Shown here one piece after another: positions 9,420 to 60,110 of a DNA stretch of 64,000 nt. Both the position numbers and the translations under genes were made by a program. Source of the stretch: Eledone cirrhosa (lineage: Eukaryota); the NCBI GenBank assembly GCA_964016885.1, contig OZ024755.1, forward strand, positions 32,674,001 to 32,738,000, in the 5' to 3' direction. Positions within the stretch are counted from its first letter, which is position 1; each line of letters opens with the position of its first letter. The notes under the pieces are model-generated. The model searched no databases. It was not told the origin of the DNA and worked only from the letters and a program-made list of their open reading frames with translations.

Positions 9420-10215
9420 TCATCACCTTTTAACATCTATTTTTCCACGCTAGCATGAGTTAGAAGAGTTTTCCTGTTGTGAGAAATGCTGGGTCAGGTG
9501 ACCATGTCTTGCTCATACAGAACTGATTTTGGCGTGGTTTCTACAGCTGGATGCCCTTCCTAATGCCAACCACTTTACAGTGTATACTGGGTGCTTTTTG
9601 ACATGAAACCTACATGACCACTTTACAGTATGTACTGACTGCTTTTTGTCGTGATTCCTACATGACTACTTTACAGTGTGTACTGGGTGCTTTTTGGCAT
9701 GACACCAACATGACCATTCTACAGTGTGTACTGAGTGGTTTTTGGTGCGACACCTACACAACCACTTTACAGTGTAGACTGGGTGCTTTTTGGCATGACA
9801 CCTACACAACCACTTTACAGTGTAGACTGAGTGCTTTTTGGCATGACACTTACACAACCACTTTACAGTGTAAACTGGGTGCTTTTTGGCATGATACCTA
9901 CACAACCACTTTACAGTGTAGACTGGGTGCTTTTTGGCATGGCACCTACACAACCACTTTACAGTGTAGACTGGGTGCTTTTTGGAATGACACCTACACA
10001 ACCACTTTACAGTGTAGACTGGGTGCTTTTTAGCATGACACCTACACAACCACTTTACAGTGTAGACTGGGTGCTTTTTGGCATAATACCTACAGGACCA
10101 CTTTACAGTGTAGACTGGGGGCTTTTAATTATGACACCTACATGACTACTTTACAGTGTAGACTAGGTGCTTTTTGGCATGACACCCACAGGACCACTTT
10201 ACAGTGTGGACTGGG
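9420..10215 (-). mobile_element. RTE 3'UTR copy carrying an internal 48-bp tandem array (9571-10213, about 13 units)
   Basis: Unit CACTTTACAGTGTAGACTGGGTGCTTTTTGGCATGACACCTACACAAC, contiguous with the RTE tail (GGATGCCCTTCCTAA). Confidence 0.85.
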
Positions 10216-10627
10216 TTCTACACATTTTATATACCAATCTTATTTCTTTGGTGAATGAAAGGAAATGAATAATTAGTAGATGAGAATTTAATAAAATTAA
10301 AGACTTTACTGCAAAACAAGCCAAATAGTATATTTTGGTGTTTGAATATTCCAATAACTACCAACCTGATTATGTTAGCTGAATGTCTACTGAAACACAC
10401 ATATAAAGACAACTGACTATACACACCTTGGAACTAAAACTGATTTGCATGATTATGATGATGATGATGATGATGATGATGAAAAGAAAGATGAAATTTG
10501 GCATGAATCCTAAGATTTCTATTGGTTTACAGATATCGAATAAGTGGAACTAAAAACATTTTTTCTGTCTTTTTCTTCTCAAAATGATGTAAAAGATGAA
10601 TGATTCTTTTGTTAAAAGGATATCTGA

Positions 10628-10813
10628 ATAATTGTGTCTACGTTTTGGCACAAGGCCAGCAATTATCCCAGTACATTACTGGTACTTTATTTTATCGACC
10701 CCGTAAGGATGAAAGGCAAAGTTAACCTCGGCGGGAATTGAACTCAGATCGTAAAGGGACGTAACTATGCTGGAAAGCATATCCGACCCTCTACCGATAC
10801 TACCAATTCACCG
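10628..10813 (-). mobile_element. SINE family A
   Basis: Same motifs as the other copies. Confidence 0.85.
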
Positions 10814-10967
10814 CTAGCAGAATGGCCTGGCGTTGCCTGGGATTTGCTCTAGGGTTCTTATATATTTGATATATATTTATCCTTATCGAGCCTCGTGAAA
10901 TAAATACGTCTGTTTATATTTTGTTATTTTGTTATTGTGTATGCAAAAATATCTGTACACGAATATA

Positions 10968-11017
<50 letters not shown>

Positions 11018-13326: not shown

Positions 13327-13590
13327 TGGTGGATTGGCAGTATTGGTAGAGCGTCGAACAACATGGCTGGCGGCATAGAGTTACATCCCTTTATGTTCTG
13401 AGTTCAAATACCGCTGAAGTTAGCTTTGCCTTTTATCCTTACGGGGGTTGATAAAATAAAGTACCAGTAATGCACTGGGGTAATTGCTGGCCTTGTGCCA
13501 AAAGTAGAAACAATTATTATGAGGGGTCTATAAAATAAAGTACCAGTAATGCACTGGGGTAATTGCTGGCCTTGTGCCAAAAGTAGAAAA
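13327..13590 (+). mobile_element. SINE family A with duplicated 3' segment
   Basis: ATAAAATAAAGTACCAGTAATGCACTGGGGTAATTGCTGGCCTTGTGCCAAAAGTAGAAA occurs twice in tandem. Confidence 0.85.
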
Positions 13591-13704
13591 ATATTACGAT
13601 GTGTGTTACCAATGTTGTTATTACAATAGATTAACAAAATAATTAAATGGTTGATAATGTCAAGTAGTGGAGGTCAGTGTAATCTACTGTCTCCTTCCTC
13701 AATT

Positions 13705-14302: not shown

Positions 14303-14517
14303 TTAATCCTTTACCATTTACATTACTCTATATATACTATTGTATTTTTGTGGTAAAGGCTTTATCTCACATAATATCGAATCTATGAGATTTTGATATT
14401 TTTTATTTTGAGAACAATACCTTAACATCAGTATGAGTGACTATTTACGGTCGGTTTCACAGAAAGAGGTGAGAGAATTCTGGTCAGATATGGCCGGTTT
14501 AAATGCTAAAGGGTTAA
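14303..14517 (-). mobile_element. piggyBac-type MITE, full length without arrays
   Basis: TTAATCCTTTACCATTTAC ... TAAATGCTAAAGGGTTAA terminal inverted repeats with TTAA at both ends. Confidence 0.85.
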
Positions 14518-16479
14518 ATTAACTGACAGATTAGTCAAAGATAAGGCTTTTTCTAATTTCTCTAATGTACAAACAAATTTAGTCTTTACTCTTTGTCATT
14601 CTTGTGAACTATAATTAAATCTTATTAGTTTGTTTAGCAGATGATTTCTTTTAGAAAAGATAATTCACTGTAGTTTCACTGCCAAATATAACTGTTCTAC
14701 TTTATTCTAGAATAACGTATTGATATGTCAGCTCTACCTTCAACACATTGGCAAATAGTTTGAATCTTTAATGAAGCTTTAATGATAATGCATAAACTTT
14801 ATCGCAACTCTCTTCTATATTTAACTTCTAAATGTCCAAATGAGTAATGAACCTGGAATGGCATTCATGCATGCACAAGCATGCACACATATACACACAA
14901 AAATAAATATTAGGATATTGTGAAGAGCAATAGAAATGCAACTGTATTTCTACTGCTCTCCACAATATTTGCTTTTTCTCCTTCACATTTTTATACCCGC
15001 TTCAAGAATATATGAAATTTCACCCTAAAGGCTTCATTTGAATGAGGAAAATTTTGAGTAAATAAAAAAAAAAAAAAAAAAAAGAAATCTGTAGAAGATA
15101 GATAGCAGACCTGCACGTTTCCTTCTCAAATTTCTGCAATACTTACAAATATATAAAATGGGTATGTGGAAGTATAGCATAGTTTAGCTAAGCATCTCTT
15201 GTATATGCACATATTAAGTTATGCAAATAATGACATAAATGTAGGAAAGGACAAATTCTTTTGAAATAGCTAAGCAAGAAGGAATTACATGAAGAGGAAA
15301 ATACAACCTACAGAAAGTCAAAAGTGAAAAGACCTCAAGTTTATCTGTTTTTCTCTTTTACATTGTGTGACCAAAGTTTTTCCAGTAACAATCAAAATGG
15401 TAAAATATAAAAATGTTATTTCAATAAAGAGTAAAAGAAAATAAACATCCAAACCTAAATCACATACACATGCACCACAATGTAGATTTTAGAGTTAAAG
15501 GATTAGATCTTTATTCTTATTTTTTTCTCCTGAATAAAGAGGATTCTTAATATTCTTATAATAATGGTTACAAAATAAATTGATTTTTTTCTTCCAAAGG
15601 CAAGATACACTGATATAAGAGAAAAGGTTACAATGAAAGTATGTTCCATACTTGACTATTTACATATAGGACAAGATTTGTTTGGTCTATCTATTTAAAT
15701 AGGATCAAGTCAGATAATTTTTAAAGATAGCTGGGGTGGGAAAATATGCAGTTATACTTTTTATTCTCCAGAAGCCAACAGCAAGAAAATCTTTGGAGAT
15801 TAATTATCAGGCATATTAGTTAAACCAGTAGGAATTTTACAAGATTATGTTTGGATTCTGTAAGTTTAAAGCCTGATTAATAGAAATGCTATAAAAATAT
15901 ATATTGCTTTTATTTTTACATATTCTTTGTAAGAGATAAATTTCTGATTTGATCAGAATTGAAGATGTATTTATAACAATGTATAGCAGTTCTTGTAAGA
16001 GATAACAAACACATTACTACTGTGGAGATTATATAGATATCTGTGGAAAAAAATATAACAGAATAATTTACAATTCTTTTATTCCTTTATTAGTTTACTG
16101 ACTTCATTCATAGGATAGTGGCCATGCTGGATTACCACCTTCAAAAGTTTTCATACATCATAACTTCTGTACTATTTGTCAATTCTCTGAATTATGGAAC
16201 ATAGTGTCATGTCATAAACTGTTTTTGAAACTCGTGTAAACAAATTCACACACATACACATATACACACACGCACGCCTATACATATACACACACAGCTA
16301 GACACACACCTATACATATACGCACACACACACAGCTACACACACGCCTATACATATACACACATGCCTATACATACACACACACACAGCTACACACATG
16401 CCTATACATACACACACACACAGCTATACATATTCACACATCATCATCATCATTTGAATATGTATATATATATATCACA

Positions 16480-16652: not shown

Positions 16653-16682
16653 AAAGAATAGAGGTGTAACACACAAGTTATT

Positions 16683-21571: not shown

Positions 21572-24500
21572 TTAACTTACATTACTCTATATTTACTATT
21601 GTATTTACATTACTCTATATTTACATTACTCTATATTTACTATTGTATTTACATTACTCTATATTTACTATTGTATTTACATTACTCTATATTTACTATT
21701 GTATTTACATTACTCTATATTTACATTACTCTATATTTACTATTGTATTTACATTACTCTATATCTACTATTGTATTTACATTACTCTATATTTACTATT
21801 GTATTTACATTACTCTATATCTACTATTGTATTTACATTACTCTATATTTACTATTGTATTTACATTACTCTATATTTACTATTGTATTTACATTACTCT
21901 ATATCTACTATTGTATTTACATTACTCTATATCTACTATTGTATTTACATTACTCTATATCTACTATTGTATTTACATTACTCTATATTTACTATTGTAT
22001 TTACATTACTCTATATCTACTATTGTATTTACATTACTCTATATTTACTATTGTATTTACATTACTCTATATCTACTATTGTATTTACCTTACTCTATAT
22101 CTACTATTGTATTTACATTACTCTATATTTACTATTGTATTTACATTACTCTATATTTACTATTGTATTTACATTACTCTATATTTACTATTGTATTTAC
22201 ATTACTCTATATCTACTATTGTATTTACATTACTCTATATTTACTATTGTATTTACATTACTCTATATTTACTATTGTATTTACATTACTCTATATTTAC
22301 TATTGTATTTACATTACTCTATATTTACTATTGTATTTACATTACTCTATATCTACTATTGTATTTACATTACTCTATATTTACTATTGTATTTACATTA
22401 CTCTATATTTACTATTGTATTTACATTACTCTATATTTACTATTGTATTTACATTACTCTATATCTACTATTGTATTTACATTACTCTATATTTACTATT
22501 GTATTTACATTACTCTATATTTACTATTGTATTTACATTACTCTATATTTACTATTGTATTTACATTACTCTATATCTACTATTGTATTTACATTACTCT
22601 ATATTTACTATTGTATTTACATTACTCTATATCTACTATTGTATTTACATTACTCTATATTTACTATTGTATTTACATTACTCTATATTTACTATTGTAT
22701 TTACATTACTCTATATCTACTATTGTATTTACATTACTCTATATTTACTATTGTATTTACATTACTCTATATTTACTATTGTATTTACATTACTCTATAT
22801 TTACTATTGTATTTACATTACTCTATATCTACTATTGTATTTACATTACTCTATATTTACTATTGTATTTACATTACTCTATATCTACTATTGTATTTAC
22901 ATTACTCTATATTTACTATTGTATTTACATTACTCTATATTTACTATTGTATTTACATTACTCTATATCTACTATTGTATTTACATTACTCTATATTTAC
23001 TATTGTATTTACATTACTCTATATCTACTATTGTATTTACATTACTCTATATTTACTATTGTATTTACATTACTCTATATCTACTATTGTATTTACATTA
23101 CTCTATATTTACTATTGTATTTACATTACTCTATATTTACTATTGTATTTACATTACTCTATATCTACTATTGTATTTACATTACTCTATATTTACTATT
23201 GTATTTACATTACTCTATATTTACTATTGTATTTACATTACTCTATATCTACTATTGTATTTACATTACTCTATATTTACTATTGTATTTACATTACTCT
23301 ATATCTACTATTGTATTTACATTACTCTATATTTACTATTGTATTTACATTACTCTATATTTACTATTGTATTTACATTACTCTATATCTACTATTGTAT
23401 TTACATTACTCTATATTTACTATTGTATTTACATTACTCTATATCTACTATTGTATTTACATTACTCTATATTTACTATTGTATTTACATTACTCTATAT
23501 TTACTATTGTATTTACATTACTCTATATCTACTATTGTATTTACATTACTCTATATTTACTATTGTATTTACATTACTCTATATCTACTATTGTATTTAC
23601 ATTACTCTATATTTACTATTGTATTTACATTACTCTATATCTACTATTGTATTTACATTACTCTATATTTACTATTGTATTTACATTACTCTATATTTAT
23701 TATTGTATTTACATTACTCTATATTTACTATTGTATTTACATTACTCTATATTTACTATTGTATTTACATTACTCTATATTTACTATTGTATTTACATTA
23801 ATCTATATTTACTATTGTATTTACATTACTCTATATTTACTATTGTATTTACATTACTCTATATCTACTATTGTATTTTCATTACTCTATATTTACTATT
23901 GTATTTACATTACTCTATATTTACTATTGTATTTACATTAATCTATATTTACTATTGTATTTACATTACTCTATATTTACTATTGTATTTACATTACTCT
24001 ATATTTACTATTGTATTTACATTACTCTATATCTACTATTGTATTTACATTACTCTATATTTACATTACTCTATATCTACTATTGTATTTACATTACTCT
24101 ATATTTACATTACTCTATATCTACTATTGTATTTACATTACTCTATATTTACATTACTCTATATCTACTATTGTATTTACATTACTCTATATTTACATTA
24201 CTCTATATTTACTATTGTATTTACATTACTCTATATTTACATTACTCTATATTTACTATTGTATTTACATTACTCTATATTTACTATTGTATTTACATTA
24301 CTCTATATTTACTATTGTATTTACATTACTCTATATCTACTATTGTATTTACATTACTCTATATTTACTATTGTATTTACATTACTCTATATTTACTATT
24401 GTATTTACATTACTCTATATTTACTATTGTATTTACATTACTCTATATCTACTATTGTATTTACATTACTCTATATTTACTATTGTATTTACATTACTCT

Positions 24501-27192
24501 ATATCTACTATTGTATTTACATTACTCTATATTTACTATTGTATTTACATTACTCTATATCTACTATTGTATTTACATTACTCTATATTTACATTACTCT
24601 ATATTTACTATTGTATTTACATTACTCTATATCTACTATTGTATTTACATTACTCTATATTTACTATTGTATTTACATTACTCTATATTTACTATTGTAT
24701 TTACATTACTCTATATTTACTATTGTATTTACATTACTCTATATTTACTATTGTATTTACATTACTCTATATTTACTATTGTATTTACATTACTCTATAT
24801 CTACTATTGTATTTACATTACTCTATATTTACTATTGTATTTACATTACTCTATATTTACTATTGTATTTACATTACTCTATATTTACTATTGTATTTAC
24901 ATTACTCTATATTTACTATTGTATTTACATTACTCTATATTTACTATTGTATTTACATTACTCTATATCTACTATTGTATTTACATTACTCTATATTTAC
25001 TATTGTATTTACATTACTCTATATTTACTATTGTATTTACATTACTCTATATCTACTATTGTATTTACATTACTCTATATTTACTATTGTATTTACATTA
25101 CTCTATATTTACTATTGTATTTACATTACTCTATATTTACTATTGTATTTACATTACTCTATATTTACTATTGTATTTACATTACTCTATATTTACTATT
25201 GTATTTACATTACTCTATATTTACTATTGTATTTACATTACTCTATATTTACTATTGTATTTACATTACTCTATATCTACTATTGTATTTACATTACTCT
25301 ATATTTACTATTGTATTTACATTACTCTATATTTACTATTGTATTTACATTACTCTATATCTACTATTGTATTTACATTACTCTATATTTACTATTGTAT
25401 TTACATTACTCTATATTTACTATTGTATTTACATTACTCTATATTTACTATTGTATTTACATTACTCTATATTTACTATTGTATTTACATTACTCTATAT
25501 TTACTATTGTATTTACATTACTCTATATTTACTATTGTATTTACATTACTCTATATTTACTATTGTATTTACATTACTCTATATTTACTATTGTATTTAC
25601 ATTACTCTATATTTACTATTGTATTTACATTACTCTATATCTACTATTGTATTTACATTACTCTATATTTACTATTGTATTTACATTACTCTATATTTAC
25701 TATTGTATTTACATTACTCTATATCTACTATTGTATTTACATTACTCTATATTTACTATTGTATTTACATTACTCTATATTTACTATTGTATTTACATTA
25801 CTCTATATTTACTATTGTATTTACATTACTCTATATCTACTATTGTATTTACATTACTCTATATTTACTATTGTATTTACATTACTCTATATTTACTATT
25901 GTATTTACATTACTCTATATTTACTATTGTATTTACATTACTCTATATCTACTATTGTATTTACATTACTCTATATTTACTATTGTATTTACATTACTCT
26001 ATATCTACTATTGTATTTACATTACTCTATATTTACTATTGTATTTACATTACTCTATATTTACATTACTCTATATTTACTATTGTATTTACATTACTCT
26101 ATATCTACTATTGTATTTACATTACTCTATATTTACTATTGTATTTACATTACTCTATATTTACTATTGTATTTACATTACTCTATATTTACATTACTCT
26201 ATATTTACTATTGTATTTACATTACTCTATATTTACATTACTCTATATTTACTATTGTATTTACATTACTCTATATCTACTATTGTATTTACATTACTCT
26301 ATATTTACTATTGTATTTACATTACTCTATATTTACTATTGTATTTACATTACTCTATATTTACATTACTCTATATTTACTATTGTATTTACATTACTCT
26401 ATATTTACTATTGTATTTACATTACTCTATATTTACATTACTCTATATTTACTATTGTATTTACATTACTCTATATCTACTATTGTATTTACATTACTCT
26501 ATATTTACTATTGTATTTACATTACTCTATATTTACTATTGTATTTACATTACTCTATATTTACATTTCTCTATATTTACTATTGTATTTACATTACTCT
26601 ATATCTACTATTGTATTTACATTACTCTATATTTACTATTGTATTTACATTACTCTATATTTACTATTGTATTTACATTACTCTATATTTACTATTGTAT
26701 TTACATTACTCTATATTTACATTACTCTATATTTACTATTGTATTTACATTACTCTATATCTACTATTGTATTTACATTACTCTATATTTACATTACTCT
26801 ATATTTACTATTGTATTTACATTACTCTATATCTACTATTGTATTTACATTACTCTATATCTACTATTGTATTTACATTACTCTATATTTACATTACTCT
26901 ATATTTACTATTGTATTTACATTACTCTATATCTACTATTGTATTTACATTACTCTATATTTACATTACTCTATATTTACTATTGTATTTACATTACTCT
27001 ATATTTACTATTGTATTTACATTACTCTATATTTATTATTGTATTTTCATGGTAAAGGCTTTATCTCACATAATATTGAATCTACGAGATTTTGATATTA
27101 TTTACTTTGAGAACAATATCTTAACATCAGTATGAGTGGCCAGTTACAGCCAGTTTGAACAGAAAGAAGTGAGGGAATTGCTAAAGGGTGAA
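21572..27192 (-). mobile_element. piggyBac-type MITE expanded by an internal 28-bp array
   Basis: The array runs directly into the MITE body TTTTCATGGTAAAGGCTTTATCTCACA... and ends GCTAAAGGGTGAA. Confidence 0.85.
21577..27045. repeat. 28-bp minisatellite TTTACATTACTCTATAT[T/C]TACTATTGTA, about 195-200 units with occasional 16-bp short units
   Basis: Directly visible. The plus strand of the unit has no stop codon in any frame, which explains the 700-1830 aa ORFs. Confidence 0.97.
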
Positions 27193-31830: not shown

Positions 31831-33374
31831 AATATATACCTATAGAATGAATTCAATGTAGTCAGATACCTTGAGAGATTTCCATTATATTGCAGATTAT
31901 AATTCTGTTAAAAAGAGTGAGGAAGCAAGAAGCAGTCATAGAGAATCAACGAATGATGATATATATATAACTAATTCAATAGATATCTATACTTAAAAAT
32001 GTATAGTCTTCTCCAGAGATATCTCAGCCACATAGCTCATAAACCAAGATAACTTCCCTTCTGAATGTCCACTCTCCAGCAATTAGTCAACATAAACATT
32101 CTTACTGGTGTCATACTAAATTGTCATGCCTTGAAATGTTTGAATAATCTATTTTTAATATCATTTTTTAAACCTTAAGCTTATTTTTATAACAGCAGCA
32201 GAATTTCAGAAACATTACTAGACAAAAATAGAGTAGGTACATAAAATGTATGATAATCTTAGACAAAGAAGTCATAAATGGGAAAAAATAATTGCATTTT
32301 AATAATAATCTACTAATTAATAAAAATTAATGATAATGTTAAAGGTCATTTTGTCTAATTTCTTTTGATTTTGTTTAGCTTTCATGTATGTCTATGAAAC
32401 ACTTAGAGATAGCTAAGACTAAATGATGTCAGGGGATTGAAATCAGTATTTAAAGAGAGGGGGAAATTTCTAAGCTATTTTATTGTTCATTTTTATATAA
32501 AAACTTAATAATACTGAATTAATTATATGCAATTTTACTAATTTTCACTAGAAACCAAATCTATAAGTGAGTATGATGTAATGGGGGAAAAATTTGAAAG
32601 AAAATGAATTAACAACTTCAGAAAAATTAGGCAATAAGTCTCAGACATTTTTACAATTTTCCTGAAACTAAAACTATATCTAATAAAGCTCTGTTTTGTT
32701 GTTTCCTTTCATTCTTTGTCCTGTTAAAGGGAACAAGTTTAAAATTTAGCTTGTATTAAATTCTAGAGGCAGAGTAGAGCAGGAAAGATCTATTAAAAAA
32801 ATCATTATTAACTGAAGTTTTTCTCTTTATTTACTCTATTATTTAGTAATCAAATGTTATCGGTGAAACGATGTGGAAAAGCAGGAGCATATTTGGAGAA
32901 AAGACTTGACAGCAGTGATGAGGTAGAGCTGGTAATTCAGCTAATCTTTTTTTTATTTGATAAAGAATGTAGAATGGGGAAGTAATGCAGCAGTATATAA
33001 ATCAAGGCAGAGTTTTCAAGCATTATGTCAATGCCTCATCATCATAATAAACTGAAACTGCTGATAGACATTTTAGATTATTAAATGTTTTATCAAATTA
33101 TGCTCACAGTATCACACTCTTGATATGAGCACCAGACAAAAAGAAATACATGTCTCATCAATCATACTATCTAAGCTATAGAAAATATCTAATACAACCA
33201 CTCCATTCTAGTCTTGAAGATTAAACTCCATACCCTATTATCTCAATGTACTCCATATAATAGATATGTTGGTTTACACCAGATGTATTTCTATAATGTA
33301 CCCACTAGATGTATCCACCAGAGGTTTTGCTAGTCTTTCTACTAGTTATATGACTGTTTAATGTAGTAATATAG

Positions 33375-36300: not shown

Positions 36301-37170
36301 ACAGTCTATCTACCAGCTATATAGCCACAGTCTATCTACCAGCTATATAGCCAGTCTATCTACCAGCTATATAGCCACAGTCTATCTACCAGCTATATAG
36401 CCACAGTCTATCTACCAGCTATATAGCCAGTCTATCTACCAGCTATATAGCCACAGTCTATCTACCAGCTATATAGCCACAGTCTATCTACCAGCTATAT
36501 AGCCACAGTCTATCTACCAGCTATATAGCCACAGTCTATCTACCAGCTATATAGCCACAGTCTATCTACCAGCTATATAGCTACAGTCTATCTACCAGCT
36601 ATATAGCCACAGTCTATCTACCAGCTACATAGCCACAGTCTATCTACCAGCTATATAGCCACAGTCTATCTACCAGTTATATAGCTACAGTCTATCTACC
36701 AGTTATATAGCTACAGTCTATCTACCAGCTATATAGCTACAGTATATCTACCAGCTATATAGCCACAGTCTATCTACCAGCTATATAGCCAGTCTATCTA
36801 CCAGCTATATAGCCACAGTCTATCTACCAGCTATATAGCCACAGTCTATCTACCAGCTATATAGCCACACTATCTACCAGCTATATAGCCACAGTCTATC
36901 TACCAGCTATATAGCCACAGTCTATCTACCAGCTATATAGCCACACTATCTACCAGCTATATAGCTACAGTCTATCTACCAGTTATATAGCTACAGTCTA
37001 TCTACCAGCTATATAGCTACAGTCTATCTACAAGCTATATGGCTACAGTCCATCTACCAGCTATATAGCCAGTCTATCTACCAGCTATATAGCCACAGTC
37101 TATCTACCAGCTATATAGCCACAGTCTATCTACCAGCTATATAGCCACAGTCTATCTACCAGCTATATAG
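33375..37170. repeat. 26-bp minisatellite ACAGTCTATCTACCAGCTATATAGC[C/T] with 24-bp variants, about 145-150 units
   Basis: Directly visible; most units contain the palindrome GCTATATAGC. Confidence 0.97.
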
Positions 37171-37303
37171 CATCTACTAATTATACTGTCACAGTGTATT
37201 TCCTAGCTACACTGCCAGTGTATCCACTACCAGTGTTGTTACACTATCTACCAGCTATAAAGCCAAAGTGTATCAAAGGTTTTGATATTATCTATTTTGA
37301 GAA

Positions 37304-37732
37304 AGGCGGTGGATTGGCAGTAACGGTAGAGCCTCAGACACCATGCTTTGCAGCATAAAGTTATGGCCCTTTACCGCCATGTAAGGCGATGAATTAGTAG
37401 TGTTGGTAGAGCCTTGGACACCACGATTTGCAGCATAAAGTTATGGCCCTTTACCGCCATGTAAGGCGATGAATTAGTAGTGTTGGTAGAGCCTTGGACA
37501 CCACGATTTACAGCATAAAGTTATGGCCCTTTACCGCCATGTAAGGCGATGAATTAGTAGTGTTGGTAGAGCTTCGGACACCACGATTTGCAGCATATTG
37601 TTATGTCTCTTTTCGTTCTGAGCTCAAATCCCGTCAAGATTAACTTTGCCTTCCATCCTTATGAGGTTGATAACATAAAGTACCAGTAATACACTGGGGT
37701 ATTGCCGGCCTTGTAATAAAAGTAGAAACAAT
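37304..37732 (+). mobile_element. SINE family A with an 80-bp head segment repeated about 3.5 times
   Basis: CAGCATA recurs at 37351, 37431, 37511 and 37591; TSD TTATYTATTTTGAGAA. Confidence 0.85.
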
Positions 37733-37785
37733 TTATTTATTTTGAGAACAATACCTTAATGTCGATATGAGCAGCCAGTTATGTC

Positions 37786-38725
37786 CAGTTTGAACAGAAA
37801 GAGGTGAGAGAATTCTGGCCGGATACAGCCAGTTTGAACAGAAAGAAGTGAGAGAATTATGGCTGGATACAACCAGTTTGAACAGAAAGAAGTGAGAGAA
37901 TTATGGCCAGATACAGCCAGTTTGAACAGAAAGAGGTGAGAGAATTCTGGCCAGATACAGCCAGTTTGAACAGAAAGAAGTAAGAGAATTCTGGCCAGAT
38001 ACAGCCAGTTTGAACAGAAAGAAGTGAGAGAATTATGGCTGGATACAGCCAGTTTGAACAGAAAGAAGTGAGAGAATTCTGGCCAGATACAGCCAGATAC
38101 AGCCAGTTTGAACAGAAAGAGGTGAGAGAATTCTGGCCAGATACAGCCAGTTTGAACAGAAAGAGGTGAGAGAATTCTGGCCAGATACAGCCAGTTTGAA
38201 CAGAAAGAAGTGAGAGAATTATGGCCAGATACAGCCAGTTTGAACAGAAAGAAGTGAGAGAATTATGGCCAGATACAACCAGCTTGAACAGAAAGCAGTG
38301 AGAGAATTCTGGCTGGATACAACCAGTTTGAACAGAAAGAAGTGAGAGAATTCTGGCTGGATACAGCCAGTTTGAACAGAAAGAAGTGAGAGAATTATGG
38401 CCAGATACAGCCAGTTTGAACAGAAAGAAGTGAGAGAATTATGGCCAGATAGAGCCAGTTTGAACAGAAAGAAGTGAGAGAATTATGGCTGGATACAGCC
38501 AGTTTGAACAGAAAGAAGTGAGAGAATTCTGGCCAGATACAGCCAGTTTGAACAGAAAGAGGTGAGAGAATTATGGCCAGATACAGCCAGTTTGAACAGA
38601 AAGAGGTGAGAGAATTCTGGCCAGATACAGCCAGTTTGAACAGAATGAAGTGAGAGAATTCTGGCCAGATACAGCCAGTTTGAACAGAAAGAAGTGAGAG
38701 AATTCTGGCCAGATATGGCCAGTTT
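37786..38725. repeat. 44-bp minisatellite CCAGTTTGAACAGAAAGA[A/G]GTGAGAGAATT[C/A]TGGCCAGATACAG, about 21 units, MITE-derived
   Basis: The unit matches MITE subterminal sequence (compare 46218-46260). Confidence 0.95.
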
Positions 38726-38949: not shown

Positions 38950-40332
38950 GGGTGGTGGATTGGCAGTATCGGTAGAGGGTCGGACACCATGGGTGGTGGA
39001 TTGGCAGTATCGGTAGAGGGTCGGACACCATGGGCGGTGGATTTGCAGTATCAGTAGAGGGTCGGATGCCATGGGTGGTGGATTGGCAGTATCGGTAGAG
39101 GGTCGGACGCCATAGCTGGTGGATTGGCAGTATCGGTAGAGGGTTGGACCCCATGGGTGGTGGATTGGCAGTATCGGTAGAGGGTCAGACACCATGGGTG
39201 GTGGATTGGCAGTATCGGTAGAGGGTCGGACGCCATGGGTGGTGGATTGGCAGTATCGGTAGAGGGACGGATGCCATGGGTGGTGGATTGGCAGTATCGG
39301 TAGAGGGTCGGATGCCATGGGTGGTGGATTGGCAGTATCGGTAGAGGGTCGGACACCATGGGTGGTGGATTGGCAGTATCGGTAGAGGGTCGGACGCCAT
39401 AGCTGGTGGATTGGCAGTATCGGTAGAGGGTTGGACCCCATGGGTGGTGGATTGGCAGTATCGGTAGAGGGTCGGACACCATGGGTGGTGGATTGGCAGT
39501 ATCGGTAGAGGGTCGGATGCCATGGGTGGTGGATTGGCAGTATCGGTAGAGGGTCGGACGCCATGGGTGGTGGATTGGCAGTAATGGTAGAGGGTCGGAC
39601 ACCATGGGTGGTGGATTTGCAGTATCGGTAGAGGGTCGGACACCATGGGTGGTGGATTGGCAGTAACGGTAGAGGGTTGGACACCATGGGTGGTGGATTG
39701 GCAGTATCGGTAGAGGGTCGGACGCCATAGCTGGTGGATTGGCAGTATCGGTAGAAGGTTGGACCCCATGGGTGGTGGATTGGCAGTATCGGTAGAGGGT
39801 CGGACACCATGGGTGGTGGATTGGCAGTATCGGTAGAGGGTCGGACGCCATGGGTGGTGGATTGGCAGTATCGGTAGAGGGTCGGACGCCATGGGTGGTG
39901 GATTGGCAGTATCGGTAGAGGGACGGATGCCATGGGTGGTGGATTGGCAGTATCGGTAGAGGGTCGGATGCCATGGGTGGTGGATTGGCAGTATCGGTAG
40001 AGGGTCGGACACCATGGGTGGTGGATTGGCAGTATCGGTAGAGGGTCGGACGCCATGGGTGGTGGATTGGCAGTAATGGTAGAGGTCGGACACCATGGGT
40101 GGTGGATTTGCAGTATCGGTAGAGGGTTGGACACCATGGGTGGTGGATTGGCAGTATTGGTAGAGGGTCGGACGCCATGCTTTGCAGCAAAGAGTTACGG
40201 CCCTTTATAATCTGAGTTTAAATCCCGCCGAGGTTAACTTTGCCTTTCATCCTTACGGGGGTCTATAAAATAAAGTACCAGTAATGTACTGAGGTAATTG
40301 CTGGCCTTGTGCCAAAAAGTAGAAACAATTAT
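38950..40332 (+). mobile_element. SINE family A whose 5' 41 bp are amplified about 30 times (38950-40178)
   Basis: Unit GGGTGGTGGATTGGCAGTATCGGTAGAGGGTCGGACACCAT; the last unit continues into a normal SINE body. Confidence 0.92.
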
Positions 40333-40388: not shown

Positions 40389-40430
<42 letters not shown>

Positions 40431-44845: not shown

Positions 44846-45019
44846 CCACACACACTGTAAATGTGTTTGGTGTTAAGAAGGGCATCCAGGTGTAAAAAAG
44901 TGGCAGAGAGACAGTCTCCCGAACATTCCTACATCAAATGGAACAAAACCGTCTAACCCATGCTAGCATGGAAGATAGACGTTAAACGATGATGATGGTG
45001 GTATATATATATATATACA

Positions 45020-45368
45020 GGAGGCACATGGCTTAGTGGTTAGAGCATTGGCCTTGCAATCAAAAGGTTGTGAGTTCAATTCTCAGACTGGGTGATGTGT
45101 TGTTTCCTTGAGCAAGACACTTTATTTCACATTGCTCCAGTTTACTCAGCTGTAGAAATGAGATGATAGGGACTGGGGTCCATATCATTCCACTGCAAAG
45201 TGGTCGTGGAGGTGCCACGGCAAAAAAGCACCCAGCACTCACTGTAAATGAGGTTGGTGTTAGGAAGGGCATCCAGCTGTAGAAACCAAGCCAGAATCAG
45301 TTCCCGTCCCACCCTTGCAAGCAGGGAAAAAGCGGACGTAAAATGAAATGATGATGATGAAATGATGA
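45020..45368 (+). mobile_element. SINE family B (CORE-like + RTE tail)
   Basis: Near-identical to 1234-1567. Confidence 0.85.
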
Positions 45369-47214: not shown

Positions 47215-47570
47215 TATTTGATCACATGAATGTCTATATTTATTAATATTTTGAATATATATATATATATATATATATAGTCTAACAAAGTTCTTTCATT
47301 GCACATCTGCAACATCATCAGTGGTACTATTATGTTGCCTCATGGTATTGTATTGTCTATGCCATTTTTATTTTTATAAATAAAAATTAAATTAAAAAGA
47401 GGGGTTCCTCTGGTAGAAGTGAAAATGCCCTGGATTGAGTTGAGTATCATTATTCAATATAAAAATAGCTCCTACAGCACTAAAACTATATTATTTGCTT
47501 ACACTCTATTAATGTATTGAGTACCTTTTTAACTGTGGTTACCCCCAATTTCTCTCACATGTATATACAC

Positions 47571-48300
47571 ACACACACAGGTGCATCACTCAGACACAGT
47601 ATATTACATATAAATTCACAACTCACACATACACACACACATGCAAACACACACACACGTGCATCACTCAGACACACAGTATATTACATATAAATTCACA
47701 ACTCACATATACACACACACATGCAAACACACACACACGTGCATCACTCAGACACACAGTATATTACATATAAATTCACAACTCACATATACACACACAC
47801 ATACAAACACACACACACGTGCATCACTCAGACACAGTATATTACATATAAATTCTCAACTCACATATACACACACACATGCAAACACACACACGTGCAT
47901 CACTCAGACACAGTATATTACATATAAATTCTCAACTCACATATACACACACACATGCAAACACACACACGTGCATCACTCAGACACAGTATATTACATA
48001 TAAATTCTCAACTCACATATACACACACACATGCAAACACACACACACGTGCATCACTCAGACACAGTATATTACATATAAATTCACAACTCACATATAC
48101 ACACACACATGCAAACACACACACACACGTGCAAACACACACACGTGCATCACTCAGACACAGTATATTACATATAAATTCTCAACTCACATATACACAC
48201 ACACATGCAAACACACACACACATGCAAACACACACACACGTGCATCACTCAGACACAGTATATTACATATAAATTCTCAACTCACATATACACACACAT
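47571..48300. repeat. about 76-80-bp minisatellite with variable (CA)n runs, about 9 units
   Basis: GTGCATCACTCAGACACAGTATATTACATATAAATTC recurs. Confidence 0.95.
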
Positions 48301-48414: not shown

Positions 48415-50110
48415 TCACCCACTTATTCCGGTGAGGGTCATGGGAGCAGAGTCCTCAATCACTCCCTCCAGTGGGTCCTGTCAGAAGCAACAATCTCCAA
48501 CTGGATCCAGCTGGATCCACAAGTGAGACCAGCCAAGTCATGGATGTTATCCAACCATCTTGATTGGGGTCTACCCCTGGGTCTCCTGCCGGTTGGTTTT
48601 GCCTATCCAGCAATTCTTTCCTGAGACATTCTAACAACATGCCCATAGTATCAGAGCTGTGATCTCTTAATCTGGAGAAGTAGCAGCTCTACCTGGAGTG
48701 ACTCTCCAGTGATTCTTTCTGGAGACACTCTAACCACATGTCCATAGTATCAGAGCTGTGATCTCTTAATCTGGAGAAGTAGCAGCTCTACCTGGAGTGA
48801 CTCTCCAGCAATTCTTTCCTGAGACATTCTAACCACATGTCCATAGTATCAGAGCTGTGATCTCTTAATCTGGAGAAGTAGCAGCTCTACCTGGAGTGAC
48901 TCTCCAGCAATTCTTTCCTGAGACATTCTAACCACATGTCCATAGTATCAGAGCTGTGATCTCTTAATCTGGAGAAGTAGCAGCTCTACCTGGAGTGACT
49001 CTCCAGCAATTCTTTCCTGAGACATTCTAACCACATGTCCATAATATCAGAGCTGTGATCTCTTAATCTGGAGAAGTAGCAGCTCTACCTGGAGTGACTC
49101 TCCAGCAATTCTTTCCTGAGACATTCTAACCACATGCCCATAGTATCAGAGATGTGATCTCTTAATCTGGAGAAGTAGCAGCTCTACCTGGAGTGACTCT
49201 CCAGTGATTCTTTATGGAGACACTCTAACCACATGTCCATAGTATCAGAGCTGTGATCTCTCAATTCAGAGAAGTAGTGGCTCCACCTGGAGTGACTCTC
49301 CAGCAATTCTTTCCTGAGACATTCTAACCACATGCCCATAGTATCGGAGATGTGATCTCTTAATCTGGAGAAGTAGCAGCTCTACCTGGAGTGACTCTCC
49401 AGTGATTCTTTCTGGAGACACTCTAACCACATGTCCATAGTATCAGAGCTGTGATCTCTTAATCTGGAGAAGTAGCAGCTCTACCTGGAGTGACTCTCCA
49501 GCAATTCTTTCCTGAGACATTCTAACCACATGTCCATAGTATCAGAGCTGTGATCTCTTAATCTGGAGAAGTAGCAGCTCTACCTGGAGTGACACTCCAG
49601 TGATTCTTTCTGAGACATTCTAACAACATGCCCATAGTATCGGAGCTGTGATCTCTCAATTCAGAGAAGTAGTGGCTCTACCTGGAGTGACTCTCCAGCA
49701 ATTCTTTCCTGAGACATTCTAACCACATGTCCATTGTATCGGAGCTGTGATCTCTTAATCTGGAGAAGTAGCAGCTCTACTTGGAGCAGCCGTCTCTAAC
49801 TTATCTGGCTGGATATCCAAGTGTGAGCAGTCAAGGTCATGGATGTTATCCAACCTTCTTGCTCGGGGTCTACCCCTGGGTCTCTTGCCAACTGGTTTTG
49901 CCCATAAAATCTGTCCAGCAATTTTTTCCTGTGACATTCTAACTACATGACCATAATAGCGGAGCTATGATCTCTCAACTCAGAAAAGTAGCAGCTCTAC
50001 CTGGAGTGACTCTCTGATCTCCGAGTTATGCACCTTATTGAGTAACGTTACTCCAAAGAGCCTTCAGAGGAATCCCATTTTGGCCGCTATTCTTTCAGTC
50101 ATTACCCAAA
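48415..50110 (-). mobile_element. RTE LINE 3' fragments with an internal 99-bp array (48607 to about 49785, about 12 units)
   Basis: The unit translates on the minus strand as ESLQVELLLLQIKRSQL*YYGHVVRMSQERIAG. A neighbouring fragment gives KPVGKRPRGRPRARRLDNI. Confidence 0.85.
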
Positions 50111-52192: not shown

Positions 52193-52273
52193 CTACATAT
52201 GATTTTGAAAATAATCAAGAATTTGGAGAGATTCAGAAATATAACTAATTTTCTCAGTATGAAGTTGGTGTTT

Positions 52274-52690
52274 GGAACATAACTTAACATAGTACCATAC
52301 ATAAAAGTATGGAGGAATGTTTTTAAATAAATATGAATATTTTACAGCAAACAGTCGTGTATCATAGAAACAGGGGTTAGGAACATAACTTAACATAAGA
52401 CCATACATAAAAGTATGGAGGTATGTTTTTAAATAAATATGAATATTTTACAGCAAACAGTCGTGTATCATAGAAACAGGGGTTAGGAACATAACTTAAC
52501 ATAGGACCATACATAAAAGTATGGAGAAATGTTTTAAAATAAATATGAATATTTTACAGCAAACAGTCGTGTATCGTAGAAACAGGGGTTAGGAACATAA
52601 CTTAACATAGTACCATACATAAATGTATGATGGAGTGTTTTGAAATAAATATAAACTTTAAAAAGTAAATAACCTTGTATCGTAGAACCA
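52274..52690. repeat. 106-bp tandem repeat, about 4 units
   Basis: GGAACATAACTTAACATA at 52274, 52380, 52486 and 52592. Confidence 0.92.
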
Positions 52691-53710: not shown

Positions 53711-54861
53711 TTAACCCTTTAGTATTTAAACTGGCCATATCCGGCCAGAATTCTCACACCTCTTTCTGTTCAAACCAGCTGTAACCAGTTGCTCATACTG
53801 ATGTTAAGGTATTGTTCTCAAAATAAATAATATCAAAATTATTATAGATAATTATGTGAGGTAAAACCTTTACCATGAAAATATAATAGTAAATATAGAG
53901 TAATGTAAATGTTATGTGAGATATTATGTGAGGTAAAGCCTTTACCATGAAAATATAATAGTAAATGTAGAGTAATGTAAATGTTATGTGAAATATTATG
54001 TGAGATAAAGCCTTTACCATGAAAATATAATAGTAAATATAGAGTAATGTAAATGTTATGTGAGATATTATGTGAGGTAAAGCCTTTACCATGAAAATAT
54101 AATAGTAAATATAGAGTAAAGTAAATGTTATGTGAGATATTATGTGAGGTAAAGCCTTTACCATGAAAATATAATAGTAAATGTAGAGTAATGTAAATGT
54201 TATGTGAAATATTATGTGAGATAAAGCCTTTACCATGAAAATATAATAGTAAATATAGAGTAATGTAAATGTTATGTGAGATATTATGTGAGGTAAAAGC
54301 CTTTACCATGAAAATATAATAGTATATATAGAGTAATGTAAATGTTATGTGAGATATTATGTGAGGTAAAGCCTTTACCATGAAAATATAATAGTAAATA
54401 TAGAGTAATGTAAATGTTATGTGAGATATTATGTGAGGTAAAGCCTTTACCATGAAAATACAATAGTAAATATAGAGTAATGTAAATGTTATGTGAAATA
54501 TTATGTGAGGTAAAGCCTTTACCATGAAAATATAATAGTAAATATAGAGTAATGTAAATGTTATGTGAGATATTATGTGAGGTAAAAGCCTTTACCATGA
54601 AAATATAATAGTAAATATAGAGTAATGTAAATGTTATGTGAAATATTATGTGAGGTAAAGCCTTTACCATGAAAATATAATAGTAAATATAGAGTAATGT
54701 AAATGTTATGTGAAATATTATGTGAGGTAAAGCCTTTACCATGAAAATATAATAGTAAATATAGAGTAATGTAAATGTTATGTGAAATATTATGTGAGAT
54801 AAAGCCTTTACCATGAAAATATAATAGTAAATGTAGAGTAATGTAAATGGTAAAGGGTTAA
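53711..54861 (+). mobile_element. piggyBac-type MITE with an internal 72-bp array (about 14 units)
   Basis: Both TIRs intact (TTAACCCTTTAGTATTTA / TAAATGGTAAAGGGTTAA); TACCATGAAA recurs every 72 bp. Confidence 0.92.
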
Positions 54862-55508: not shown

Positions 55509-56030
55509 AGGTGCGTGGCCTAGTGGTAAGGGTGTTGGACTTACGATTGTAATGTCGTGGGTTTGATTCCAGGGCTGGGTTGTGTGTAGTGTTCTTGAGC
55601 AAAACACTTCATTTCACGTTGCTCCAGTATACTCAGTGGAGGTGTGTGGCCTAGTGGTAAGGGTGTTGGACTTATGATCGTAATGTCGTGGGTTTGATTC
55701 CAGGGCTGGGTTGTGTGTAGTGTTCTTGAGCAAAACACTTCATTTCACATTGCTCCAGTATACTCAGTTGAAAATGAGTACCAGCAATAGCTGGGGGTTT
55801 AACCCTGCGATGGACTGGCATCCTGTCCAGGGGGGGGGGGAGTCTTGTACTCTCAGTCACTTAATGTTAAGGAAACTGGGAGCTCCAGTATACCCAGCTG
55901 AAATTGAGTACCAGTAATAGCTGGGGGTTTAACCCTGCAATGGATTGGCATCTTATCCAGGGGGGAGTCTTGTACTCTCAGTTACTTTATATCATGAAAC
56001 TGGGATAAACATTGGTCTAACAAGCCTTAA
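55509..56030 (+). mobile_element. CORE-like SINE with a different tail (CCCTGCGATGGACTGGCATCCTGTCCAGGG); head and tail each duplicated
   Basis: 131-bp head duplication (A box TGGCCTAGTGG, B-box-like GGTTTGATTCC); tail segment repeated at about 55770 and about 55900. Confidence 0.75.
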
Positions 56031-56035: not shown

Positions 56036-56724
56036 TTAACCCTTTAATGTTCAAACCGGCTAAAACCGGCCAGAATTCTCTACCTTTTTCTGTTGAAACT
56101 GACTATAACTGGTCACTCAAACTGATGTTAAGGTATTGTTCTCAAAATAAATACTTTCAAAATCTCATAGATTCGATATTATGTGAGATAATTATGTGAG
56201 ATAAAGCCTTTACCATGAAAATATAATAGTAAATATAGAGTAATGTAAATGTTATGTGAAATATTATGTGAGGTAAAGCCTTTACCATGAAAATATAATA
56301 GTAAATATAGAGTAATGTAAATGTTATGTGAAATATTATGTGAGGTAAAGCCTTTACCATGAAAATATAATAGTATATATAGAGTAATGTAAATGCTATG
56401 TGAAATATTATGTGAGGTAAAGCCTTTACCATGAAAATATAATAGTATATATAGAGTAATGTGAAATATTATGTGAGGTAAAGCCTTTACCATGAAAATA
56501 TAATAGTATATATAGAGTAATGTGAAATATTATGTGAGGTAAAGCCTTTACCATGAAAATATAATAGTATATATAGAGTAATGTGAAATATTATGTGAGG
56601 TAAAGCCTTTAACCATGAAAATATAATAGTATATATAGAGTAATGTGAAATATTATGTGAGGTAAAGCCTTTACCATGAAAATATAATAGTATATATAGA
56701 GTAATGTGAATGGTAAAGGGTTAA
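56036..56724 (+). mobile_element. piggyBac-type MITE with internal 72-bp then 61-bp units (about 8 in total)
   Basis: TTAACCCTTTAATG ... ATGGTAAAGGGTTAA. Confidence 0.9.
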
Positions 56725-57104
56725 GACAGACTTTTAGACTTAAATTTCAAAGATGGTGAACTGGCAGTCATTAGAACATTAGATTATATGTCTAAATATT
56801 TGTTTTGGTTCAATGTGCTCCAAGGTCAAATTTGAGGTCAAATTTGCCTTTTTTCTTCATTACAGGTTAAACCTTTGGGGGGTGGGGGGTGGGGGGTTAC
56901 CTTAATAAATATATTATTCACCTCCACTCCTTAATTATATGTTCTTGCTGCAGAAAGCATCCCTGAGAAGTTCTACATGTTACTCAAATATATTCTATGA
57001 CCTGGTAAGTAGAAGTAAGACTATGGTGGTATATATACACGGATACACGGGTAAGAATATAAACAAATAAAATGAACAATCTGTTTACGTCTGATGAACA
57101 ACAA

Positions 57105-57645
57105 CGATGATGATGATGGTGGTGGTGGTGGTGATGGTGATGGTTGTGATAGTGATGGTGGTGGTGATGATGGTGATGATGGTGGTAGTGATGATGATGA
57201 TGATGATGATGGTGATGGTGGTGATGATGGTGATGATGGTTGCGATGATGATGGTGGTGATGGTGGTGGTGATGATGGTTGTGATGATGATGGTGGTGGT
57301 GGTTGTGATGATGGTGATGGTTGTGATGGTTGTGATGGTGGTGGTGGTTTTGATGATGGTGAGAATGATGATGGTTGTGATGATGATGGTGCTGACAATG
57401 ATGATGATGATACACATATGGTGGTGGTGATGGTGGAGGTGGTGATGATGGTGATGATGGTTGTGATGATGATGGTAGTGGTGATGATGGTAGTGGTGAT
57501 GATGATGGTGGTGGTGATGATGATGGTGGTTGTGATGATGGTGGTGGTGGTGGTGACGATGGTTGTGATGATGATGATGATGATGATGATGATGAGAATG
57601 ATGATTGTTGTGATGATGATGGTGCTGACAATGATGATGATGATA
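57105..57645. repeat. (GAT/GGT)n microsatellite
   Basis: Directly visible. Confidence 0.95.
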
Positions 57646-57822
57646 CACAAACATAGACTGTTACTATATTCCCCCTCATTTTGTCATCTATTTCAGTATG
57701 TTTTGCTATTTATGTAACATGTCATCTTGTTTTCCTTACTCCTTACTTTTCTGAAGATGTTCGATGTTACATACATATATAAGTCTTCTATGTATCCTTA
57801 TTAGTTCTGTCACACAAATCTC

Positions 57823-60110
57823 ATTCTTCTTCTTCTTTGTCCATTTATTCCTAAGAGGGTCATGGGGGAAGAGTTCTCAAATACTCCATCCAATGGGTCC
57901 TGTCAGAAGCAACAGTCTCCAACTGATCTGGCTGGATTCCCAAGGGACAGAGTCCTCAAACACTCCCTCTAGTGGGTCCTGTCAGAAGCAACAGTCTCCA
58001 ACTGATCTGGCTGGATCCCCAAGTGACAGAGTCCTCAAACACTCCCTCTGGTGGGTCCTGTCAGAAGCAACAGTCTCCAACTGATCTGGCTGGATCTCCA
58101 AGTGACAGAGTCCCCAAACACTCCCTCTAGTGGGTCCTGTCAGAAGCAACAGTCTCCAACTGATCTGGCTGGATCCCCAAGTGACAGAGTCCTCAAACAC
58201 TCCCTCTAGTGGGTCCTGTCAGAAGCAACAGTCTCCAACTGATCTGGCTGGATTCCCAAGGGACAGAGTCCCCAAACACTCCCTCTAGTGGGTCCTGTCA
58301 GAAGCAACAGTCTCCAACTGATCTGGCTGGATCCCCAAGTGACAGAGTCCTCAAACACTCCCTCTAGTGGGTCCTGTCAGAAGCAACAGTCTCCAACTGA
58401 TCTGGCTGGATTCCCAAGGGACAGAGTCCTCAAACACTCCCTCTAGTGGGTCCTGTCAGAAGCAACAGTCTCCAACTGATCTGGCTGGATTCCCAAGGGA
58501 CAGAGTCCCCAAACACTCCCTCTAGTGGGTCCTGTCAGAAGCAACAGTCTCCAACTGATCTGGCTGGATTCCCAAGGGACAGAGTCCTCAAACACTCCCT
58601 CTAGTGGGTCCTGTCAGAAGCAACAGTCTCCAACTGATCTGGCTGGATTCCCAAGGGACAGAGTCCCCAAACACTCCCTCTAGTGGGTCCTGTCAGAAGC
58701 AACAGTCTCCAACTGATCTGGCTGGATCCCCAAGTGACAGAGTCCTCAAACACTCCCTCTAGTGGGTCCTGTCAGAAGCAACAGTCTCCAACTGATCTGG
58801 CTGGATTCCCAAGGGACAGAGTCCTCAAACACTCCCTCTAGTGGGTCCTGTCAGAAGCAACAGTCTCCAACTGATCTGGCTGGATTCCCAAGGGACAGAG
58901 TCCCCAAACACTCCCTCTAGTGGGTCCTGTCAGAAGCAACAGTCTCCAACTGATCTGGCTGGATTCCCAAGGGACAGAGTCCTCAAACACTCCCTCTAGT
59001 GGGTCCTGTCAGAAGCAACAGTCTCCAACTGATCTGGCTGGATCCTCAAGTGACAGAGTCCTCAAACACTCCCTCTAGTGGGTCCTGTCAGAAGCAACAG
59101 TCTCCAACTAATCTGGCTGGATCCCCAAGTGACAGAGTCCTCAAACACTCCCTCTAGTGGGTCCTGTCAGAAGCAACAGTCTCCAACTGATCTGGCTGGA
59201 TTCCCAAGGGACAGAGTCCTCAAACACTCCCTCCAGTGGGTCCTGTCAGAAGCAACCATCTCCAACTGATCTGGCTGGATCCCCAAGCAAGACCAGCTAA
59301 GCTCATGGATGTTATCCAACCATCTTGCTTGGGGTCTACCCCTGGGTCTCCTACTGGTTGGTTTTGCCTGTAAAATCTATCCAGCAATTCTTTCCTGAGA
59401 GATTCTTACCATATGTCCATAGTATCGGAGCTGTGATCTCTCAATTCAGAGAACTAGTGGCTCCACCTGGAGTGACTCTCCAGCAATTCTTTCCTGAGAC
59501 ATTCTAACCACATGTCCATTGTATCGGAGCCGTGATCACTCAATTCAGAGAAGTAGCGGCTCTACCTAGAGTGACTCTCTAGTGATTCTTTCCTGAGACA
59601 TTCTAACCACATGCCCATAGTATCAGAGCTGTGATCTCTCAATTCAGAGAAGTAGAGGCTCTATCTGGAGTGACTCTCTGATCTCCAAACTACGCACTTT
59701 ATCGAGTAAAGTTACTCCAAAGATCCTTTGGAGGAATGTCATTTCAGCTGCTTGTATTCGCATGATCATAGGTAAGGGTTGGCATGAAAACCGAATTGAA
59801 GATGGCAAGTTTGGCTTTTACGCCTTTTTCTGATTACTGGATACTGCAGCTGGCATATTACTGCACCAGCTCCTGCAATTTTTGCACTTAATTTAGCCTC
59901 CTGCCTTCCATCATTTGTGAACACAGCCTCGAGATACTTGAACTTCTCCACCTGCTTCAGTGGAACTCCATTTACATATAGAGTGCACTGTTCAGGCTTC
60001 CTTGAGAGGATGAGCATCTCAGATTTCGCAGCACTGGGCATCAAACCTATCAAGTGCAAGTCGGAGGTCACCTTCTGTCAAGTTAAGTAACACCATGTCG
60101 TCTGCAATTT
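57823..60110 (-). mobile_element. RTE LINE 3' half (RT C-terminal part to tail) with a 79-bp array (57895-59285, about 17 units) and three 99-bp units
   Basis: IADDMV RT motif at about 60090-60108; KSEMLILSRK...LYVNGVPLKQVEKFKYL; (GAA)n tail on the minus strand near 57825. Confidence 0.88.

Follow-up and report, generated by a model that had tools for sequence, protein, structure and literature searches.

Minisatellite arrays built from pieces of dispersed elements in a 64-kb window of the Eledone cirrhosa genome

Tandem arrays and dispersed families of the window

A stretch of 64,000 nucleotides of Eledone cirrhosa (GenBank assembly GCA_964016885.1, contig OZ024755.1, positions 32,674,001 to 32,738,000), here called the window, contains an array-rich mixture of tandem repeats together with transposable elements (TEs), and many of the arrays consist of pieces of these elements. 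The window is AT-rich animal DNA whose repeat profile and SINE families resemble those of octopus. Tandem DNA accounts for 42.5% of it; 8,270 bp are microsatellite and 19,766 bp lie in 21 arrays with complex units. Tandem arrays were called with TRF (Tandem Repeats Finder), and four dispersed families were rebuilt from the copies in the window alone. These are a TTAA-flanked MITE (miniature inverted-repeat transposable element) of ~205 bp, a short interspersed nuclear element (SINE) called SINE-A, a SINE-B-type tail and a reverse transcriptase (RT)-type long interspersed nuclear element (LINE).

A preliminary description, made from the letters alone, had listed ten arrays with units of 48, 28, 80, 44, 41, 99, 72, 72/61, 79 and 99 bp and roughly 13 kb in total, and had traced each to a segment that also occurs unamplified or in low copy number in the window. 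All ten were found by TRF, their total was measured as 13,010 bp, and every unit aligns to a family with single copies in the window (Table 1). In 10/10 arrays the units are fully covered by TE sequence. The MITE is the parent of the 28-, 44-, 72- and 72/61-bp arrays, SINE-A of the 41- and 80-bp arrays, the SINE-B-type tail of the 48-bp array and the LINE of the 79-bp and both 99-bp arrays. The members of the two pairs are called 72a and 72b (the latter with 72/61-bp units) and 99a and 99b. Eight of the ten arrays have at least four middle monomers, the 80-bp array (3.6 units) and 99b (3 units) lying below.

The terminal unit runs into the parent element on at least one side in all ten arrays and on both sides in five of them (44, 72a, 72b, 79 and 99b). 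The earlier picture of an internal segment with the element continuing at the array edge therefore holds on both sides for these five and not for the other five. Furthermore, not all units are internal, since the units of 41 and 80 bp take in the SINE from its first base onwards. The ten arrays had also been overcounted as ten independent events: about seven seeds remain, because the 48-bp array is a variable number tandem repeat (VNTR) of its family and the 72-bp and 99-bp pairs each have a common junction. The refuting case named beforehand, in which the same arrays are part of the family consensus everywhere, thus holds in part, for the 48-bp VNTR and likely for the multi-unit 99-bp array. 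Among the element copies, the 13 MITE loci represent 12 elements, of which four bear arrays and 8/12 are array-free. SINE-A has 16 merged loci, two with arrays of at least three units, and most of its copies are array-free. The SINE-B-type tail is found at 16 loci with one long array, and the LINE at three loci, both long ones array-bearing.

Three arrays without a recognisable element (26, 78 and 106 bp; 4.9 kb) had been missing from the preliminary description, and the non-TE share is 3/13 arrays. Recognisable TEs make up 33% of the window once arrays are collapsed and microsatellites masked. TE-derived are 10/13 arrays with at least three copies versus 4.5 expected (P=0.002), and 7/10 independent seeds versus 3.4 expected (P=0.024, or P=0.10 with unrecognised TEs lifting the share to 45%). 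The enrichment of TEs among independent seeds is modest. The 26-bp array is degenerate in its left part and palindromic in its core; no parent element was found for it, and it abuts a MITE remnant near 37280.

Table 1. Arrays and reference copies, with positions in the window
Feature	Position	Strand	Remarks
48-bp x13.5 array	9567..10216	-	SINE-B-type tail; 3' part of element at 9403-9566; no element sequence past 10216
MITE reference copy, unamplified	14305..14518	-	window comparison
28-bp array, 184 units + 18 16-bp deletion variants	21577..27046	-	subterminal MITE segment; host continues at 27047-27190
26-bp array, ~147 units (3.8 kb)	33353..37171	.	no dispersed copy in window; non-TE control
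80-bp x3.6 array	37325..37612	+	5' ~68 nt of SINE-A + ~12-nt linker; host SINE 37304-37737 inside MITE, 11-bp target site duplication
44-bp x21 array	37785..38725	-	MITE; delimited by an 8-bp direct repeat that single copies also have; terminal inverted repeat 38725-38742
41-bp x30 array	38950..40179	+	SINE-A nt 1-41; body to ~40335; locus within 15-bp target site duplication
SINE-B reference copy	45018..45360	+	tRNA-like head + one VNTR unit; Rfam, window comparison
78-bp array	47569..48299	.	CA-rich boundaries; no dispersed copy in window
99a, 99-bp x12 array	48606..49786	-	33 codons, in frame; in LINE copy L1 (3' end ~48398), region coding for the C-terminus
L1b, more diverged LINE piece	49787..50095	-	single 99-bp unit; adjoins 99a
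106-bp x3.6 array	52270..52652	.	no dispersed copy in window
72a, 72-bp x14 array	53846..54849	+	MITE 53711-54860, both inverted repeats intact
72b, 72/61-bp x8 array	56190..56710	+	MITE 56037-56723; junction as in 72a
79-bp x18 array	57866..59287	-	near 3' end of LINE copy L2 (57826-60130)
99b, 99-bp x3 array	59380..59678	-	in L2; junction and unit variants in common with 99a
SINE-A reference copy, unamplified	63244..63436	-	window comparison

Arrays within their parent elements

The MITE is non-coding, its termini pair over ~14-18 bp, and TTAA is present at both ends. Such TTAA ends are associated with piggyBac- or Kolobok-type superfamilies. The MITE that hosts the 28-bp array sits within a long SINE-A variant (nest 21419-27246) and has lost most of the inverted repeat adjacent to the array. 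Here, the length variants are discrete, 18/18 being shorter by exactly 12 bp, and of 61 differences between units 57 are recurrent and 56 are transitions. The three MITE seeds (28, 44 and 72 bp) each have a breakpoint within ~20 bp of an element end (chance 0.24, 0.26 and 0.31 for the three), and the 28- and 72-bp units end at a nearly identical MITE site. As a separate observation, SINE-A is nested in a MITE twice, at nearly identical MITE positions (42842-43262 and 37280-38742, with target site duplications (TSDs) of 13 and 11 bp).

SINE-A is ~190 bp long and has TSDs of 15, 11 and 13 bp at the 3/3 copies examined. Three SINE duplications that start at nt 1 measure 41, 80 and 131 bp, and both the 41- and the 80-bp arrays lie inside TSDs with almost no microhomology. 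Between the 41-bp units, 38/43 differences are recurrent. We assume that the SINEs resemble Meta-, CORE- or V-SINEs, or the octopus OK, OR1 and OR2 elements. One copy of SINE-A was without a tRNA match at E<=10, its A/B-box-like motifs being visible by eye only, while the head of SINE-B, present in one full copy, scored 30.3 bits against the Rfam tRNA model (gathering 29). Four short SINE motifs gave no match in the searched supplements of PMC11481361 and PMC4824008 (one PMC4824008 file aside). In ten other aligned copies of the SINE-B-type tail the 48-bp unit is single in four and present at least twice in six. This repetition across copies indicates a VNTR of the family, which has been expanded at 9567..10216, and both edges of this array are more diverged. 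Low-copy tandem duplications of 206, 79, 131, 204 and 121 bp are present at 1-544, 13444-13596, 55509-56010, 63037-63436 and 5022-5291, respectively; four are SINE-derived, and they look like potential seeds.

The LINE frame has 383 homologues at E<=0.001, which are C-termini of RT polyproteins, the best at 1.9e-50 and several with PF00078. The 3' end of the element with a simple-repeat tail lies at 57826, and from its C-terminal motif the clade may be RTE/Rex3. Arrays 99a and 99b have an identical junction despite only 2 bp of homology, and all three units of 99b share variants with particular units of 99a. The units of 99b are 88% alike, the flanks of L1 and L2 92%, and L1b is 82-84% like either. 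The common junction and unit variants together with this 88% versus 92% likeness suggest that an in-frame array of two to three units was likely present in the source of L1 and L2, and the multi-unit 99-bp array thus likely predates their split. A tandem 33-aa repeat is seen in 0/120 and 0/16 homologues, a weak test with no match named as octopus, which argues against the 99-bp array being a general trait of the family in other species. At one codon position, 9/12 units of 99a carry an in-frame stop. At the motif that the 99-bp unit covers, a distant RT-type C-terminal homologue, P0124, has an independent tandem array of its own (17-aa x5).

Between the 79-bp units, 19/23 differences are recurrent, and no length variants are present. 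The terminal 67 bp of L2 are 75% like L1 versus 92% for the L2 body. A mosaic parentage of the 79-bp array was considered on this ground and set aside as no more than suggestive, because old divergence at the edge accounts for these values as well. Other fragments that resemble LINE 3' ends lie at 4230-4505, 29860-30010, 31420-31830 and 46400-46570. The first of these has Atlas features like those of endonuclease-RT fragments, and a sequence search with it gave no homologue.

Probable seeding, expansion and transfer of the arrays

Taken together, it is probable that the minisatellites arose from pieces of dispersed elements through a mixture of small duplications, expanded later on the chromosome, and that at least one array was copied from MITE to MITE. 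The origin of the units, the junction sequences, the common 72- and 99-bp junctions, the 48-bp family VNTR and the neighbouring non-TE arrays can be read directly from the window; the mechanism set out here would account for them as follows.

The seeds appear to be of several kinds. Short direct repeats in the MITE may have given rise to the 44- and 28-bp arrays and to the 16- and 61-bp deletion variants. Here, exact microhomology is present in the unamplified sequence, where the 44-bp unit has 8 bp, the 16-bp variant 6 bp, and the 28-bp unit and the 61-bp variant 4 bp each (background for at least 4 bp, P 0.014-0.028). The 48-bp array would stem from the VNTR already present in the SINE-B-type family, and the 99-bp arrays from the in-frame duplication of two to three units in a LINE source copy. 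For the 41-, 80-, 72- and 79-bp arrays, low-homology duplications anchored on element ends are proposed, as the junctions of 41, 72, 79 and 99 have ~0-3 bp of homology and that of 80 a short linker. The position of the MITE seeds near ends and the SINE duplications from nt 1 suggest that element ends may position some of the seeds. Slippage or repair at microhomologies, as had been proposed for all arrays, thus fits the MITE junctions (8, 6, 4 and 4 bp) and not those of 41, 72, 79 and 99. A DNA-level process is well supported for expansion and too simple for seeding.

The expansion of the arrays is likely a DNA-level process after insertion, because arrays of non-TE origin lie next to the TE-derived ones, blocks of several units have been duplicated and the stop codon has spread through 99a. 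Repetition of such blocks is above that of shuffled arrays for the 41-, 79- and 26-bp units (P<0.01), and the scoring of unit variation in 99a took in 7/12 units. This evidence supports DNA-level expansion better than the earlier argument that class I and class II elements are both affected. Slippage, unequal exchange and gene conversion would then act on any local sequence.

The proposed transfer concerns the 72-bp pair. Arrays 72a and 72b have in common the junction, a 1-bp difference from the MITE variant with a 13-bp duplication and a C-to-T change, and their units are 97.4% alike (112 pairs) in comparison to 88.7% for single copies. However, the two array-bearing MITEs are not sisters along their whole length. 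Their left arms match at 93/112 sites (83%), inside the 77-88.5% range of 21 arm pairs, and have only three derived states in common, as for unrelated copies. No homology was found between their outer flanks. A transposed array-bearing MITE would leave the arms as alike as the units; therefore, the simplest reading is copying from locus to locus, with the element as its boundary. Judged from these sequences, the 72-bp array was likely copied between two separately inserted MITEs, by a move that would have gone through homology-directed repair, and a distant copy is a possible donor. Segmental duplication was ruled out for the 72- and 99-bp pairs by outer flanks without homology, a single 201-bp match reflecting overlap of the two ranges compared. 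The open reading frame of the 72-bp array gave no match among predicted proteins, which is likewise a weak test.

Several points weigh against this interpretation. Five of the nine junction types (41, 72, 79, 80 and 99) have no 4-bp microhomology. The four with at least 4 bp are all from the MITE, two of them (16 and 61) being secondary deletions, and only 2/7 primary seeds have it. Block duplication in the 28-bp array is a weak signal against shuffles (P=0.06) and is not detected in the 44-bp array (P=1.0). Furthermore, the MITE arm trees have no supported branches, so that the conversion claim relies on distances and on the common junction features, and the 0/72 difference for 72a and 72b comes from the best-matching pair, which is a biased comparison.

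Whether the window is special is a further question. A local hotspot may not be needed at all if these arrays represent subfamily or satellite variants that occur throughout a tandem-rich genome, from whose upper tail the window is an ordinary sample, an explanation to which we give a substantial chance, somewhat below even. The 48-bp VNTR as a family trait, a 99-bp triplication likely older than L1 and L2, the possibly distant 72-bp donor and the separate array of P0124 in the same protein region agree with it, and there is no surplus of short inter-array gaps (5 versus 2.9, P=0.12). Also, for O. vulgaris genome averages of 7.45% simple repeats, 0.35% low-complexity sequence and 3.12% satellite in 80 families are given in PMC13282606. 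Nevertheless, tandem DNA at 42.5% of the window stands against ~11% for these three classes together, a comparison between different methods and with a window that had been picked because it is striking. Moreover, array placement is uneven (KS P=0.011), and 8/12 MITEs and most SINE-A copies in the window are array-free. The opposite extension of our preferred mechanism is that junctions, once formed in one MITE or LINE, home to neighbouring paralogues by homology-directed repair, that families homogenise without transposing and that the region is a cross-class local hotspot; this we regard as doubtful.

For the retroelements, seeding might have taken place during reverse transcription or integration, by 5'-end duplication or template jumps, with expansion only later. 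The 41-, 80- and 131-bp duplications from the first SINE base, the near absence of microhomology within the 15- and 11-bp TSDs and the reading frame kept by the 99-bp unit are in line with this. It is nevertheless unlikely, since it leaves the MITE and non-TE arrays unexplained, since 30 units, block duplications and a spreading stop codon require turnover after insertion, and since none of the 120 and 16 homologous proteins has the tandem 33-aa repeat. An element-driven rather than regional origin of the MITE arrays, from repair of transposase cuts or from hairpin stalls at the ends, would explain why all three MITE seeds break close to an end and why 28 and 72 end nearly together. The MITE also folds somewhat better than its shuffles (z -2.1), and a 10-bp stem joins its right terminus to an internal site (z -3.8). 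However, there are three events only, direct repeats suffice for 44 and 28, the 28-bp unit is unstructured (z +0.5), and no transposase gene was recognised among the 150/171 open reading frame fragments of the window that were scanned, which makes this origin quite improbable. General hairpin seeding was rejected, as 7/9 folded array stretches have z above -2. Finally, assembly is difficult for arrays as long as 4-5.5 kb, and the assembler or polishing could have expanded arrays or homogenised the units of 72a and 72b. Recurrent, transition-biased variants, deletions of fixed size (18/18 at -12 bp) and divergence at the edges are not error-like, and element ends and TSDs around the arrays are intact, so such an artefact is very improbable. 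The arrays appear to be real structures, and their copy numbers are provisional.

Other features of the window and comparison with known systems

No host gene was recognised in a Pfam scan of 150 of the 171 stop-free fragments (at least 45 aa, outside repeats), which gave one sub-threshold chance match; short exons may escape such a scan. Rfam returned sub-threshold microsatellite matches and two tRNA-like heads and nothing else, ARAGORN found zero tRNA genes in the window, and a TTAGGG dimer, looked for as a telomere repeat, is absent from it. MITE and SINE-A motifs had 0 matches in prokaryotic genome contigs. The tRNA-like sequence at 4023-4094 (Rfam 39.6 bits) has a diverged second copy downstream at ~7140-7270, and both are probably the head of another SINE family. 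A near-perfect (98%) palindrome at 16682-17170, with arms of ~245 bp and its centre at 16940-16944, lies beside a 24-bp direct duplication; no second copy was seen in the window, and it may be a foldback element or else stem from an inverted duplication of recent date. Long compound microsatellite tracts are located at 19231-19966, 40340-41196, 51293-52190, 57106-57644, 2846-3729 and 61998-62584. Their motifs are GAT/GGT, CAC/CAT, ACT and CA/GA, some with higher-order periods, e.g., of 92 bp.

The arrays imply no new gene, system or function. Their value lies in several stages of minisatellite birth being present beside single-copy parents, with breakpoints that are directly readable. If true, the 72-bp pair would be a compact, testable case of an array moving between TE paralogues by recombination and not by transposition. 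Furthermore, arrays like these are candidate VNTR markers; they would also inflate TE coverage and could find their way into consensus libraries as contaminants.

Minisatellites and satellites that stem from TEs are on record for SINEs, LINEs, long terminal repeat elements and MITEs (PMC9659126, PMC6947457, PMC12628747). In humans, 7,276 minisatellites are TE-derived, with seeds at direct repeats of 5-10 bp followed by slippage, conversion or unequal exchange (PMC9659126, PMC6947457), and a two-step model of seeding and then expansion is reviewed in PMC6947457 and in section 4 of PMC9659126. The density in the window is much higher than that of the human minisatellites described there. The Haber-Louis model of short direct repeats, covered in the same sources, fits the 44-bp (8 bp) and 16-bp (6 bp) units, in contrast to 28 and 61 at 4 bp and to 41, 72, 79, 80 and 99 at under 4 bp. 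Tandem SINEs are known from bivalves (PMC11481361), and no paper on TE-derived minisatellites in octopus was found in the open-licence literature.

The squamate sSat (Vassetzky et al., 2023, PMC10702118) are close to the SINE arrays described here. Their unit is shorter than the SINE and comes from its 5', middle or 3' parts, the terminal unit passes into what remains of the SINE, in many cases on one side only, and arrays contain a few to hundreds of units, the longer ones being homogenised. In contrast, as presented in that source, the sSat are ~70-290 nt, SINE-only, subtelomere-biased and drawn from a genome-wide survey, whereas here units of 28-99 bp come from four families in 64 kb. Similar to Xstir and miDNA4 of Xenopus (PMC12628747), the MITE arrays consist of internal MITE sequence with short AT-rich direct repeats at the flanks, and termini decay as at the 28-bp array. 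Here, however, amplification has affected three different segments of one and the same 205-bp MITE, and the non-sister hosts of the 72-bp arrays argue against an array merely riding a transposing MITE, unlike Xstir.

A parallel for such a transfer may be the Drosophila case in which Rsp-like entered 1.688 clusters (Sproul et al., 2020, PMC7403614). There, one rare junction is found at several loci and is homology-seeded, interlocus gene conversion is proposed, and the moved piece is discordant with its host. In Drosophila, satellite clusters serve as landing pads for an unrelated satellite as the cargo, whereas in the window the pads are TE copies, the cargo is a part of the TE and one clear pair is seen. 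The arrays of the window are therefore a dense case of an already known process, in which the only mild surprise is that the 72-bp array was apparently passed between MITEs that are not sisters.

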